Shown in pieces: positions 873 to 8,185 of a DNA stretch of 8,198 bases. Each line of letters starts with the position of its first letter. Within the stretch, counting starts at the first letter, position 1. The notes under the pieces were generated by a model. It saw nothing but the letters and a program-made list of their open reading frames with translations. It ran no database searches and had not been told where the DNA came from. The position numbers and the translations under genes are program-made. The stretch is from Octopus sinensis (Eukaryota), in assembly GCF_006345805.1 (NCBI RefSeq), contig NW_021828512.1, positions 1 to 8,198 of the forward strand. The letters run 5' to 3'.

Positions 873-913
873 TATATATGTATATATATACATATATATA
901 TATATAATATATA

Positions 914-965
<52 letters not shown>

Positions 966-972
966 TATATAT
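873..972. repeat. (TA)n microsatellite, left flank of the direct-repeat element
   Basis: Visible TA run with few interruptions. Confidence 0.95.
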
Positions 973-976
973 TTTT

Positions 977-1268
977 TTTTCGCAGGAAGGAAGTTTCTTC
1001 CGAAGTATACGTCTCGCTTTTATCTTCGAAACGTAGAGTAGATGAAACCTTAGCGACTGAAGAAGGGGATTTTTCGTTGTGCTTATTGTCCTGTATCTCT
1101 CTTTTTTTTGCTTGTCTTGTTCCTTGTTTGTGTCTATGTTTTTCGTCTCTCTATGTGTTCGACGTCTTTTTGGTGTCCTGTACACATATATGCGTGTATA
1201 TGTACATGTAGAGGTAGGTACGTACATATATTTTATATATATGCATATGTTCTATTTTATTAACCTAT
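977..1268 (+). repeat. Direct repeat copy 1 (pseudo-LTR)
   Basis: Aligns by eye to 1837-2127 with a few small indels and substitutions. Confidence 0.95.
1008..1070 (+). ncRNA. Putative non-circularly permuted hammerhead ribozyme, copy 1 (predicted cleavage after C1013)
   Basis: Stem III TACGT(1008-1012)/ACGTA(1031-1035); GTC triplet 1011-1013; stem I TCGCT(1014-1018)/AGCGA(1052-1056); CTGAAGA 1057-1063; stem II GGGGAT(1065-1070)/ATCTTC(1022-1027) after one extra A; GAAA 1028-1031. Confidence 0.7.
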
Positions 1269-1836
1269 TAACGACTAAACGCACGCACCCTATTAAGTAA
1301 GATTGTTCTGTTTATCAAGTTAGCCTTGATATTAACTCTCACGCGACTCTGCATCTCTTTTCTTTCTCTCCCATTCCCTTTTTCGTCCTTTTTCCCTCAC
1401 TTAACTTGTCTCTTCCTCTCTCTCTCATTCTTCATTCTCTCTCTCCCTTTCACCATTCTTCATAGTCTCCTCGCACCATTCCCCTTCTTCTCTCTCTTCC
1501 TCTTGCTCTCTCCCCCATTCCCGTCGTCCATCTGCGACGATACTTCCGTCGTAACTGCTATCCTGTCTTTTCTCGCCCGCCTTCTAAGGCTACTGGTCGA
1601 CATTCTTTCTCTCTCGTCGTCACTATAATCCAGCGTTTGCAATACTTTTTTCGTCTGGCGTTAACAGCCCTTCTTATCTTGTTCTCCTTGTCCTGTCTCT
1701 CACTGTTATATATTTATTTTTCCACTGTTTATATAATTTTTTTTTACTGTTTATATGTTTGTACTGTCGTTACCGTCTTGCTTTTTTTACCATTTTTACC
1801 CCTCTGCGAAAAGATCTCAGAATTTTATTGATTTGC

Positions 1837-2127
1837 TTTTCGCAGGAAGGAAGTTCTTCGAAGTATACGTCTCGCTTTTATCCTTCGAAACGTAGAGTAG
1901 ATGAAACCTTAGCGACTGAAGAGGGGATTTTTCGTTGTGCTTATTGTCCTGTATCTCTCTTTTTTTTGCTTGTCTTGTTCCTTGGTTTGTTGTCTATGTT
2001 TTTCGTTCTCTATGTGTTCGACGTCTTTTTGGTGTCCTGTACACATATATGCGTGTATATGTACATGTAGAGGTAGGTACGTACATATATGTTTTATATA
2101 TGCATATGTTCTATTTTATTAACCTAT
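1837..2127 (+). repeat. Direct repeat copy 2 (pseudo-LTR)
   Basis: Aligns by eye to 977-1268. Confidence 0.95.
1866..1928 (+). ncRNA. Putative non-circularly permuted hammerhead ribozyme, copy 2 (predicted cleavage after C1871)
   Basis: Stem III TACGT(1866-1870)/ACGTA(1890-1894); GTC 1869-1871; stem I TCGCT(1872-1876)/AGCGA(1911-1915); CTGAAGA 1916-1922; stem II GGGGAT(1923-1928)/ATCCTTC(1880-1886, one bulge); GAAA 1887-1890. Confidence 0.72.
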
Positions 2128-2132
2128 ATATA

Positions 2133-2172
<40 letters not shown>
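2125..2172. repeat. (TA)n microsatellite, right flank of the direct-repeat element
   Basis: Visible TA run. Confidence 0.95.
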
Positions 2173-2175
<3 letters not shown>

Positions 2176-3072
2176 ATGTTTAACGTATGGTGTGTGTAAG
2201 CGCAACAGAATTCTATACCTGGCGAATTATAAACTGCTTCGTCGTAATATAATTTTAAAATATAATAAAATATAAACTGGTGAAAAGTTCCTGAACTTTT
2301 CACGTCACCTTTTTAACATTTTGCCTATTAAATATTTTGCATATAAGTTGCATACATAGGGGAAATAATCAGAAGTTGAAAATGTATCAAATCTTTTTCT
2401 TACATACATATGTTCGTGTGTGTACACATGTATATATATATATTTGGAATTTACAGAAGAATAAAAGACGAAGTCAACTGTATGAACAAAGAGCAGATGT
2501 GCGTGGTATAGGTACAAAGTCATATTTGGATGACCTTGATCCGTTTTTACTGTATTTAGCTTCCCAAAACTTTTATCTAACTTTTCCATATTTTTCGTAT
2601 TTAAAATCAGTTGCTTTTCGATAATTAAATAGGCACACATATATATCATCTGTAATGTTTATCATTCAAAATTTAAAGTTTATTGCACGACAGAATAATA
2701 ATAATAATAATAATATATCTGTATATATTTAATTTCTACATGCGAAGAAAAACGCATCCTTTTAAGTAACGATATGACCGACAAACATACCCTTTCAAAA
2801 ATGCTGAAGCGTTTCTTTTTTATATAATATAACCGATTACATCTGAGCTTGTTAAAATTAGATACATACTAATATCAGGATGTATGAAACCAGTAATAGA
2901 TTAATAGAACACGCCAAAATATCTGTCAGGATATTTTTTTATTATTTGTTTTTATTATTTGTATTTCTTAAAAATGCATATTCTTAAATAGGATGTATGA
3001 TTTTAACGCTATTTCAGAGCAAATATACTTTTGTCTCCACAAATGGAAATCCTATATGAAATATTCCAAGAT

Positions 3073-3322
3073 AGGCGCAGGGTGACTGTGTGGTAAGAAT
3101 TGTGCTTCCCAACTACATGGTTCGTGCTTCAGTACTGCAGCGTGAAACCTTGGGCAAGTGCTGTCAGTGTATGTAGGTCTCGTAATCTACCGGTTCGGCC
3201 AAAGTGCCCGATTGAAGTACCAAGTTATAAAAACTAAGTGCAGGTGTCGATTCATTCAACTAAAAAAACGCTCAAGGCACTGCTCCAACATCGACGCTGT
3301 CAAATGACTGAATTAATTAAAG
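3073..3322 (+). mobile_element. Old, internally deleted tRNA-derived SINE related to the copies at 6438-6823 and 7569-8185
   Basis: The head AGGCGCAGGGTGACTGTGTGGTAAG...CCTTGGGCAAGTG and the tail GTCGATTCATTCAACT...TGCTCCAACAT...GTCAAATGACTGAA match the reverse complements of the younger copies, with many substitutions. Confidence 0.8.
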
Positions 3323-4819: not shown

Positions 4820-5355
4820 AAGGCGGTGAGATGGCAGAATCGTTAGCACGCCGGGCGAAATGCTTAGCGGTATTTCGTCTGCCGCTACGTTCTGAGTTCA
4901 AATTCCGCCGAGGTCGACTTTGCCTTTCATCCTTTCGGGGTCGATTAAATAAGTACCAGTTACGCACTGGGGTCGATGTAATCGACTTAATCCGTTTGTC
5001 TGTCCTTGTTTGTCCCCTCTATGTGTAGCCCCTTGTGGGTAGTAAAGAAATAGGTATTTAGTCTGCTGCTACGTTTTGAGTTCAAATTCCGCCGAGGTCG
5101 ACTCTGCCTTTCATCCTTTCGGGGTCGGTAAATTAAGTACCAGTTACGCACTGGGGTCTATGTAATCGACTTAATCCGTTTGTCTGTCCTTGTTTGTCCC
5201 CTCTGTGTGTAGCCCCTTGTGGGTAGTAAAAAGTAGGTATTTCGTCTGTCTTTACGTTCTGAGTTCAAATTCCGCCGATGTCGACTTTGCCTTTCCTCTT
5301 TCCGAAGACGATAAATTAAATACCAGTTGCGTACTGGGGTCAATCTAATCTGCCT
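4820..5355 (+). mobile_element. tRNA-derived SINE with Meta/MESC-like core, body tandemly repeated ~2.6 times
   Basis: Head GGCGGTGAGATGGCAGAATCGTTAG (A-box) and B-box GAGTTCAAATT (4894-4904). The core GACTTTGCCTTTCATCCTTTCGGGGTCGAT...AAGTACC resembles the Meta/MESC SINE domain (from memory). Units start at 4869, 5053 and 5236. Confidence 0.88.
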
Positions 5356-6437: not shown

Positions 6438-6823
6438 TCTCTTTTTACTCTTTTACTTGTTTCAGTCATTTGACTGCGGCCATGCTGGAGCACCGCCTTT
6501 AGTCGAGCAAATCGACCCCGGGACTTATTCTTTGTAAGCCCAGTACTTATTCTATCGGTCTCTTTTGCCGAACCGCTAAGTGACGGGGACGTAAACACAC
6601 CAGCATCGGTTGTCAAGCAATGCTAGGGGGACAAACACAGACACACAAACATATACACACACACTTACATATACATATACATATATACGACAGGCTTCTT
6701 TCCGTTTCCGTCTACCAAATCCACTCACAAGGCATTGGTCGGCCCGGGGCTATAGCAGTGGGACTGAACCCGGAACCATGTGGTTGATTAGCAAGCTACT
6801 TACCACACAGCCACTCCTGCGCC
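6438..6823 (-). mobile_element. Near full-length tRNA-derived SINE (Octopus-type) with internal microsatellite and a 27-bp deletion
   Basis: Minus strand: GGCGCAGGAGTGGCTGTGTGG (A-box 6813-6803), B-box GGTTCAGTCCC (6770-6760), internal (TG/TA)n, tail ...CAAATGACTGAAACAAGTAAAAGAGTAAAAAGAG. Highly similar to 7569-8185. Confidence 0.92.
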
Positions 6824-7568: not shown

Positions 7569-8185
7569 TCTTTTACTCTTTTAGTTGTTTCAGTCATTTG
7601 ACTGCGGCCATGCTAGAGCACCGCCTTTAGTCGAGCAACTCGACCCCGGGACTTATTCTTTTTGTAAGCCCGGTACTTATTCTATCGGTCTCTTTTGCCG
7701 AACCGCTAAGTAACGGGAACATAAACACACCAGCATCGGTTGTCAAGCAATGCTACGGGGACAAACACAGACACACAAACACACACACGCATATATATAT
7801 ATATATATATACACAATTAATTAAGGGTAGAAATTGATATTTATCAATTAAGACCAATTATTTTATTTCGTATATTTTTCACTTGTTTATTGCTATGGTT
7901 TTGTGTTGAGTTTGATCTGAGAACATAATCTTTTGTGGTGAATGGCGATTTGACGTCTATATCTAGCATGTTGACTGTCCACTTTTCGTATTCAGTCCTT
8001 AATTGGTATATATATACACATATATACGACGGGCTTCTTTTCAGTTTCCGTCTACCAAATCCACTCACAAGGCTTTGGTCGGCCCGAGGCTATAGCAGAA
8101 GACACTTGCCCAAGATGCCACGCAGTGGCACTGAACCCGGAACCATGTGGTTGGTAAACAAGCTACTTACCACGCAGCCACTCCT
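7569..8185 (-). mobile_element. tRNA-derived SINE (same family as 6438-6823) interrupted by a ~190-bp insertion
   Basis: 7569-7790 and 8020-8185 align to the two halves of 6438-6823; foreign sequence 7814-8005 sits in the internal microsatellite. Confidence 0.92.
7814..8005. mobile_element. Nested insertion in the SINE microsatellite, with short inverted termini
   Basis: Absent from the paralogous SINE. AATTAAGG (7819-7826) and CCTTAATT (7997-8004) are inverted, and the flanks are TA/CA repeats. Confidence 0.7.

Follow-up and report, generated by a model that had tools for sequence, protein, structure and literature searches.

A non-autonomous Penelope-type tandem retroelement of Octopus sinensis with a predicted non-circularly permuted hammerhead

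A stretch of 8,198 nucleotides of the Octopus sinensis genome (contig NW_021828512.1, forward strand; hereafter the window) contains a non-coding sequence that repeats its own beginning and lies between two runs of (TA)n. What kind of element leaves such a copy, and how is it made? The initial annotation had taken it for a retrozyme-like element, from which hammerhead ribozymes excise an 858-nt RNA that is possibly circularized and re-inserted by the reverse transcriptase (RT) of a Penelope-like element (PLE). The corresponding features of the window are as follows.

977..2127, plus strand: a single element insertion of 1.34 units (from alignment and family ends).
977..1268, plus strand: first copy of the terminal direct repeat, pseudo-LTR-like (from alignment).
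1837..2127, plus strand: second copy of the terminal direct repeat, which terminates at the fixed start site of reverse transcription (from alignment and the 3' ends of the family).
1014..1871, plus strand: predicted cleavage-to-cleavage monomer of 858 nt, non-coding (from descriptor, Pfam and folding).
873..972, no strand: (TA)n target on the 5' side (from repeat finding).
2125..2177, no strand: (TA)n target on the 3' side (from repeat finding).
1269..1315, plus strand: sequence forming the optional 3' "tail" of 40-50 nt in some older copies, a PLE signature (from the 3' ends of family copies).

The terminal repeats (annotated at first as ~290 bp) are identical in 290 of 294 columns of a pairwise alignment; otherwise they differ by several 1-nt indels, such as unpolished contigs typically have. 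The copy is truncated at its 5' side ~37 nt ahead of the first predicted cut, and its 3' terminus is the fixed end of the family. The (TA)n described on both sides is present at 873-972 and 2125-2177. No credible ORF had been seen in the element, and Pfam gave indeed no match for the three longest plus-strand frames inside the unit, which is low in GC (40%) and pyrimidine-rich. The monomer folds better than its shuffled versions, with z -3.2 as a linear and z -4.6 as a circular molecule (25 shuffles). Its predicted length of 858 nt holds for the window copy but not as a value for the family: in 35 tandem pairs of the host genome the period from cleavage site to cleavage site is 824-898 nt (median 863).

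In the window's own genome (2.72 Gb), the element family is represented by 40 scored matches at 98-100% among 1,422 candidates. The exact three-block S-G-C motif of the hammerhead (see below) has 1,376 genome matches, compared to 0 for a reversed-pattern control, and a looser two-block G+C pattern has 3,249, compared to 1. Furthermore, arrays of three units exist in the genome, and the unit with its head-to-tail joint is present in assembled contigs of two of the four sequencing runs examined. In run X1, depth is much higher just 3' of the predicted cut, contig depth being a measure that can neither rank parts nor show ends. As the window lies on a small contig and the two repeats differ by 1-nt indels, one could suspect that the locus was duplicated in place or misassembled, or that it is an element of the LTR/TRIM type. 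However, there are thousands of dispersed copies instead of a single-copy locus, they have variable 5' ends and form head-to-tail arrays, and the repeat borders possess neither TG...CA ends nor PBS- or PPT-like sequences. Copy number, arrays and 5'-end data refute these readings, whose remaining chance is practically negligible. It is almost certain that 977-2127 is a copy of a real, multi-copy, non-autonomous element of the PLE type, as had been proposed, and the family is young.

The element carries the elements of a hammerhead in an unusual order.

1008..1018, plus strand: hammerhead block S, comprising the 5' strand of stem III, GUC with the predicted cut after 1013, and the 5' strand of stem I (from descriptor and covariation, with the 5'-end pile-up).
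1023..1035, plus strand: hammerhead block G, comprising the 3' strand of stem II, GAAA (1028-1031) and the 3' strand of stem III (from descriptor and covariation).
1036..1051, plus strand: conserved linker from block G to block C, with the AGUA strand of an internal loop and the 3' strand of an extension helix (1044-1048) (from copy alignments).
1052..1068, plus strand: hammerhead block C, comprising the 3' strand of stem I, CUGAAGA (1057-1063), an extra A and the 5' strand of stem II (from descriptor and covariation).
1866..1926, plus strand: second S-G-C hammerhead, with the predicted cut after 1871, GAAA at 1887 and CUGAAGA at 1916 (from descriptor).

The blocks are arranged as cleavage site, GAAA and CUGAnGA, that is, in the reverse of the cyclic order of types I-III (type SGC), and 3-4 nt link block S to block G (stem I to stem II). 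A type-SGC descriptor finds exactly two sites in the window, 1013/1014 and 1871/1872. These are the sites predicted before, and genomic 5' ends accumulate there as well; the hammerhead itself is, however, not of the type I/III known from retrozymes but a non-circular S-G-C permutation. The descriptor matches none of 20,000 dinucleotide shuffles of the unit on either strand. Rfam hammerhead models do not match the window at E<=1, which is expected for a permuted order because the blocks do not follow one another as in types I/II/III. The conserved core (NUH, GAAA, CUGAnGA) is completely present in S, G, C order, although this conservation is partly circular, as most loci were found with core patterns and it is to that extent built into the search. 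When 39 copies were tallied from anchors, C or A but never G was found at position 17, and A or U at N7. N7 is the free position of the hammerhead core, and the two variable core positions are those at which hammerheads allow exchanges. Moreover, the hammerhead of the element has an extra A before stem II; an unpaired A at this place is a described trait of PLE hammerheads (PMC4209133).

The stems were compared in 28 natural copies from several subfamilies. Double changes are found at 4 of the 7 pairs of stem I and at 2 of the 5 pairs of stem III. Compensatory cells number 38 (11.8 in shuffled and no more than 8 in slid controls); note that these cells count sequences and go back to a handful of evolutionary events. 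The 39-copy tally agrees for both stems. The four pairs of stem II (G-C, G-U, G-U, G-C) can form in 38, 39, 37 and 31 of the 39 copies and are nearly invariant; no compensatory change was found in them, and the oldest subfamily has only 3 bp. By its block order and by stems I and III, the putative ribozyme matches type SGC; its stem II is a candidate helix, and it may act in cis.

Other pairings compete with this fold, and they involve two more features.

1804..1845, plus strand: conserved hairpin just upstream of the ribozyme, followed by GAAGG able to sequester the 3' strand of stem II (from sequence, folding and a pairing tally).
993..997, plus strand: 5' strand of a helix extending stem III, which pairs with 1044-1048 (compensatory changes at 3 of 6 pairs).

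The 3' strand of stem II pairs with the upstream GAAGG in 95.9% of cells and with the core's own GAAGG, in an inactive register, in 99.3%; in most older copies, its 5' strand is taken up by a local hairpin. Nested minimum-energy folds of the unit omit the ribozyme. A candidate helix for the interaction of stems I and II is 75% paired and has no double change, and the same strand covaries with an upstream partner instead. Finally, the linker between blocks G and C pairs with the 5' flank and thereby extends stem III across an internal loop with nearly invariant AGUA. This fourth helix has double changes at 3 of 6 pairs (with four young rows misaligned by one column in the tally), and its 3' strand reaches the 3' strand of stem I within 0-3 nt. 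The AGUA loop may resemble a bulged-G/loop E motif; a kink-turn reading was dropped, as the required tandem GA is not conserved. Given the geometry of hammerheads, such an extension of stem III seems incompatible with an SGC fold made by one molecule. It is therefore likely that cleavage is under some control, be it a conformational switch or an exchange of blocks between two units. Dimeric hammerheads that spare monomer circles have been described (PMC4209133).

The copies of the element have one fixed and one variable end. When loci chosen irrespective of their 3' end are considered, 54 terminal 3' ends lie at the same point as in the window copy and are followed by (TA)n, while seven older copies carry a further 40-50 nt of the unit, the optional tail (nine were flagged, two of which, L003 and L031, were misclassified). 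In PLEs, the optional tail has been tied to two internal RT start sites (PMC11167929). The 5' ends vary across copies, and some copies have 5' inversions; inverted 5' pieces in L109/L110, L119/L120, L015, L037 and L052 result in inverted-repeat insertions, as described for PLEs. Targeting of (TA)n microsatellites is seen as well, the set used for mapping 5' ends being itself anchored on the 3' junction. A fixed 3' end combined with a variable 5' end is the PLE pattern. The copies are not circularly permuted at both ends, as had been considered, since only the 5' end varies.

The 5' ends were mapped for the first 89 of 522 loci with an exact 3'-end match, which were aligned to a natural three-unit copy. 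Two loci were discarded (L192, for want of an anchor, and L122, whose alignment ran over into a neighbour), so that 87 remained; two of these are censored at the end of the reference. Fourteen of 78 insertions at risk stop 244-259 nt from the 3' end, i.e. 0-15 nt 3' of the predicted cut, three of them exactly at the cut. Compared to a background expectation of 1.8%, this is an excess with p=1.6e-10, and no other 16-nt window has more than 4 stops; note that the lower edge of the 244-259 window was set after seeing the data and that TA microhomology may favour some exact starts. In an independent set of 30 older copies, for which the G+C blocks served as anchor, about 11 begin between the cut and GAAA as well. 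In contrast, no copy stops at 180-244 nt, the 3' foot of the helices, where RT meets them first, which favours a physical RNA end over a stall of RT. The pile-up of 5' ends is indirect genomic evidence for cleavage at the predicted site.

Alternatively, the motif might be a decayed ribozyme, or it might serve for recognition or as a stop without being catalytic, with the pile-up produced by RT stalling or by a protein nuclease. A motif of this kind would agree with the lack of support for stem II and its better conserved partners, with the conflict between the extension helix and the cis fold, and with a second family in the genome that has the same block order but no stem II. On the other hand, stem I covaries at four positions immediately 3' of the NUH triplet, the variation of the core keeps to the two tolerant positions, and the stops lie at or just after the scissile bond and not at the foot of the helices. 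We consider the non-catalytic reading quite improbable, and think it likely that the permuted hammerhead cuts itself at the predicted site, be it in cis or as a dimer.

The second family just mentioned (L061-L090, e.g. L062, around the central match) is unrelated to the element. It has S-G-C block order and its own stems I and III, and it makes up most of 695 matches (23 in the control). Its S-G-C motif sits in a non-LTR retrotransposon in which a restriction-like endonuclease motif was recognized by eye (no Pfam match). The 3' end of the retrotransposon follows ~120 nt after the S-G-C motif, and the strand before GAAA complements an upstream G-rich run. As its block C cannot form stem II, this family was set aside as independent support for an S-G-C ribozyme.

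Most insertions are longer than the run from the 3' end to the first cut. In fact, 64 of the 87 pass the first predicted cut, 38 exceed one unit (copies of more than unit length, as noted initially for the window, are common) and 21 pass the second site. At the second pass 1 of 22 stops at the site, which does not differ significantly from the first pass (Fisher p=0.18). In 36 tandem pairs, the two units of the same insertion disagree in 5 of 331 shared-variant cells; between insertions, it is 3,881 of 11,385 variant cells (34%). There are at least eight haplotypes, each homogeneous across the units inside an insertion. The read-through junctions are exact in 32 of 35 cases. Two older read-through copies, L104 and L095, have small deletions, with trimmed upstream sequence joined at or across the cut, as expected from the joining of a trimmed RNA end. 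Taken together, homogeneous units, junctions, read-through and the folding of the monomer favour a bottleneck of one monomer, most simply a ligated circle. A circular template for reverse transcription is therefore probable; read-through and one haplotype per tandem fit such a template without proving it. A circle model has been proposed for PLEs (PMC4209133), and circles have been shown for other retrozymes (PMC7229834).

Could the same lengths arise without a circle? An active but weak ribozyme would leave some multimeric linear transcripts uncut, which would give long copies, whereas cut ones would give short copies. Exact junctions are also expected from uncut read-through, the difference in stopping between first and second pass is not significant, and PLE hammerheads are reported to cleave poorly in vitro (PMC4209133). 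Yet the homogeneity of at least eight haplotypes within insertions would still need a one-unit bottleneck or conversion, three-unit arrays exist though every round truncates the 5' end, and trimmed junctions occur at the cut; this explanation seems unlikely to us. In another scheme, the ribozyme would free linear monomers, and RT, on reaching the 5' end of a monomer, would jump to a 3' end, either that of the same molecule or that of another. Such jumps account for the one-unit bottleneck and for the two imprecise junctions at the cut (L095 and L104), but 32 of 35 junctions are exact and free of added bases, and there are almost no arrays of mixed haplotype though subfamilies coexist. Template jumping is accordingly very unlikely, and a ligated circle is the template that we prefer.

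The enzyme that inserts the element is probably borrowed from a PLE. One PLE family of the genome is young (150 scored matches at 94-100% among 18,741 candidates) and encodes an RT domain (Pfam RVT_1); it also possesses a CxxC linker and a GIY-YIG-like C-terminus (both read from the sequence), (TA)n targets and an optional tail. From the architecture described in PMC8557442, this candidate helper appears to be Neptune-like. The initial annotation had suggested a search for autonomous PLEs sharing the repeat. None was found: the one PLE family compared, the Neptune-like one, has no significant DNA sequence in common with the unit, and in the loci examined the unit is nowhere continuous with a PLE ORF. 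The tblastn matches in L105, L129, L258 and L062 were rejected as autonomous partners, being fragments of neighbouring PLEs instead. L105, L129 and L258, loci of 3 kb, each combine a PLE ORF fragment with a copy of the element; in L105, the (TA)n that follows the 3' end of the element is also where the fragment begins, which implies that both use the same target.

The very abundant young Neptune-like PLE (L211-L245; an 850-aa open frame is present in L241) has a type I hammerhead-like motif in its 3' UTR. In most of 30 copies of this motif CUGAnGA is replaced by UUGAAAA, that is, the C3-G8 core pair is swapped for U3-A8. The family has two alternative 3' ends ~40 nt apart.

Several further repeats are present in the window. 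On the minus strand, 601-637 belongs to a different repeat and forms a minimal type I hammerhead in PLE style, with a palindromic stem III, an extra A and one core mismatch (U4 to C); minimal hammerheads of PLEs are described in PMC4209133. A SINE-like unit of 184 nt occupies 4869-5350 with 2.6 copies in tandem. One dispersed SINE-like family is represented by several pieces, at 6443-6820, 7571-7809 and 8008-8185, as well as at 3082-3160 on the opposite strand.

The results can be combined in a scheme of a non-autonomous Penelope-type tandem retroelement with SGC cleavage, probable circularization and copying back into (TA)n, to which, taken as a whole mechanism, we assign a probability of roughly two in three. 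In this scheme, a copy longer than one unit would first be transcribed. The ribozyme would cut the transcript after GUC, once per unit; here the structure comes from covariation and the site from the pile-up of 5' ends, while the chemistry is predicted. A borrowed PLE endonuclease/RT, for which the abundant Neptune-like family is the best candidate, would then nick (TA)n. Reverse transcription would begin inside the unit, at one fixed AU-rich site that the cut precedes by ~259 nt, as the fixed end and the tail of the copies indicate. On a linear cut RNA, RT would run off at the cut and leave a copy of ~250 nt, a length class that is observed; on a ligated circle, the putative template of the observed arrays, it would pass the site repeatedly and produce one to three or more identical units. 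Cleavage would probably be regulated by a conformational switch or by a swap of block C between two units, the latter of which would spare monomer circles.

A bolder version, which we put forward tentatively and with the odds slightly against it, is that this is the first genome-encoded, retroelement-borne non-circular hammerhead, switched off in the monomer circle by the extended stem III, with an exchange of blocks between units as the only way to complete it, and that thousands of copies record rolling-circle reverse transcription of a circle made by a ribozyme. If this is true, permuted hammerheads would also explain some of the PLEs that are reported to lack ribozymes or to have only "half cores". 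Naiads are reported in the available text of PMC8557442 to be without canonical hammerheads, some having "half cores" with the second half on either side.

In the literature searched, non-circular permutations are known only from environmental sequences with unknown hosts and no assigned genomic role. The present family supplies a permuted hammerhead with a host, a job and a series of subfamilies with compensatory changes. As insertion lengths split into those that ran off at the cut and those that were read through, the origin of PLE and retrozyme tandems from ribozyme-made circles becomes directly testable. Furthermore, standard type I/III descriptors miss permuted motifs, so that censuses of retrozyme and PLE ribozymes may be undercounts. 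We found no report of a permuted hammerhead in an animal retroelement in the literature searched, which covered few subscription journals and the supplementary alignments of Eckert et al. by keyword. In the same literature, the S-G-C order is reported only from metatranscriptomes, and the term "type-SGC" is used only by Eckert et al. 2023, whom PMC13725137, in its available text, just cites.

The type-SGC hammerheads of Eckert, Friedrich, Weinberg & Weinberg 2023 (HRIMA-1 and variants, PMC10085705) are non-circularly permuted, were validated in vitro and typically have a 3-nt linker between stems I and II; according to the available text, none of these motifs comes from the genome of a known organism, except for one GCS candidate. 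The hammerhead of the element shares with them the S-G-C order, all core nucleotides, a stem I of 5-7 bp, a linker of ~3 nt and two crossing helices. In contrast to the published ones, which come from metatranscriptomes, it is encoded in the genome, in an animal retroelement. It further differs in its PLE-type extra A, a weak G-U-rich stem II and the covarying extension of stem III, and its I-II interaction helix is not well supported.

With plant LTR retrozymes (PMC4918200) the element shares a ribozyme-to-ribozyme RNA of 600-1000 nt and terminal repeats of ~300 nt. However, their type III hammerheads, true LTRs, PBS/PPT and GC of >55% were not seen in the element, and they have 4-bp TSDs, whereas TSD length is masked in the element by the (TA)n flanks.

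The likeness to PLEs (PMC11167929, PMC8557442, PMC4209133) comprises the fixed 3' end internal to the unit, the optional tail of 40-50 nt, variable 5' truncation, 5' inversions, partial tandems, (TA)n targets and a terminal-repeat hammerhead with an unpaired A before stem II. Targeting of (TA)n is described for Naiad/Neptune, and non-autonomous relatives are described among Chlamys, such as MRC1 (PMC8557442). Unlike these PLEs, the element has no ORF, its hammerhead is permuted instead of type I, and no autonomous partner with a common repeat was found.

The animal non-LTR retrozymes (Cervera & de la Pena 2020, PMC7229834; Li, Clavereau & Pollet 2026, preprint 10.64898/2026.07.22.740005) are, like the element, non-coding tandem repeats with one hammerhead per unit, low GC and no LTR, PBS or PPT, for which dependence on PLEs and a circular intermediate have been proposed. 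Their hammerheads are of type I, their units measure ~170-450 nt, and circles have been shown for several; the unit of the element is ~865 nt long and pyrimidine-rich, its hammerhead is of type SGC, and its circle is inferred. The element works like an animal non-LTR retrozyme or a non-autonomous PLE, but it has the S-G-C order in place of the type I hammerhead, and units of 824-898 nt in place of the ~150-450 nt, by which retrozymes are recognized.
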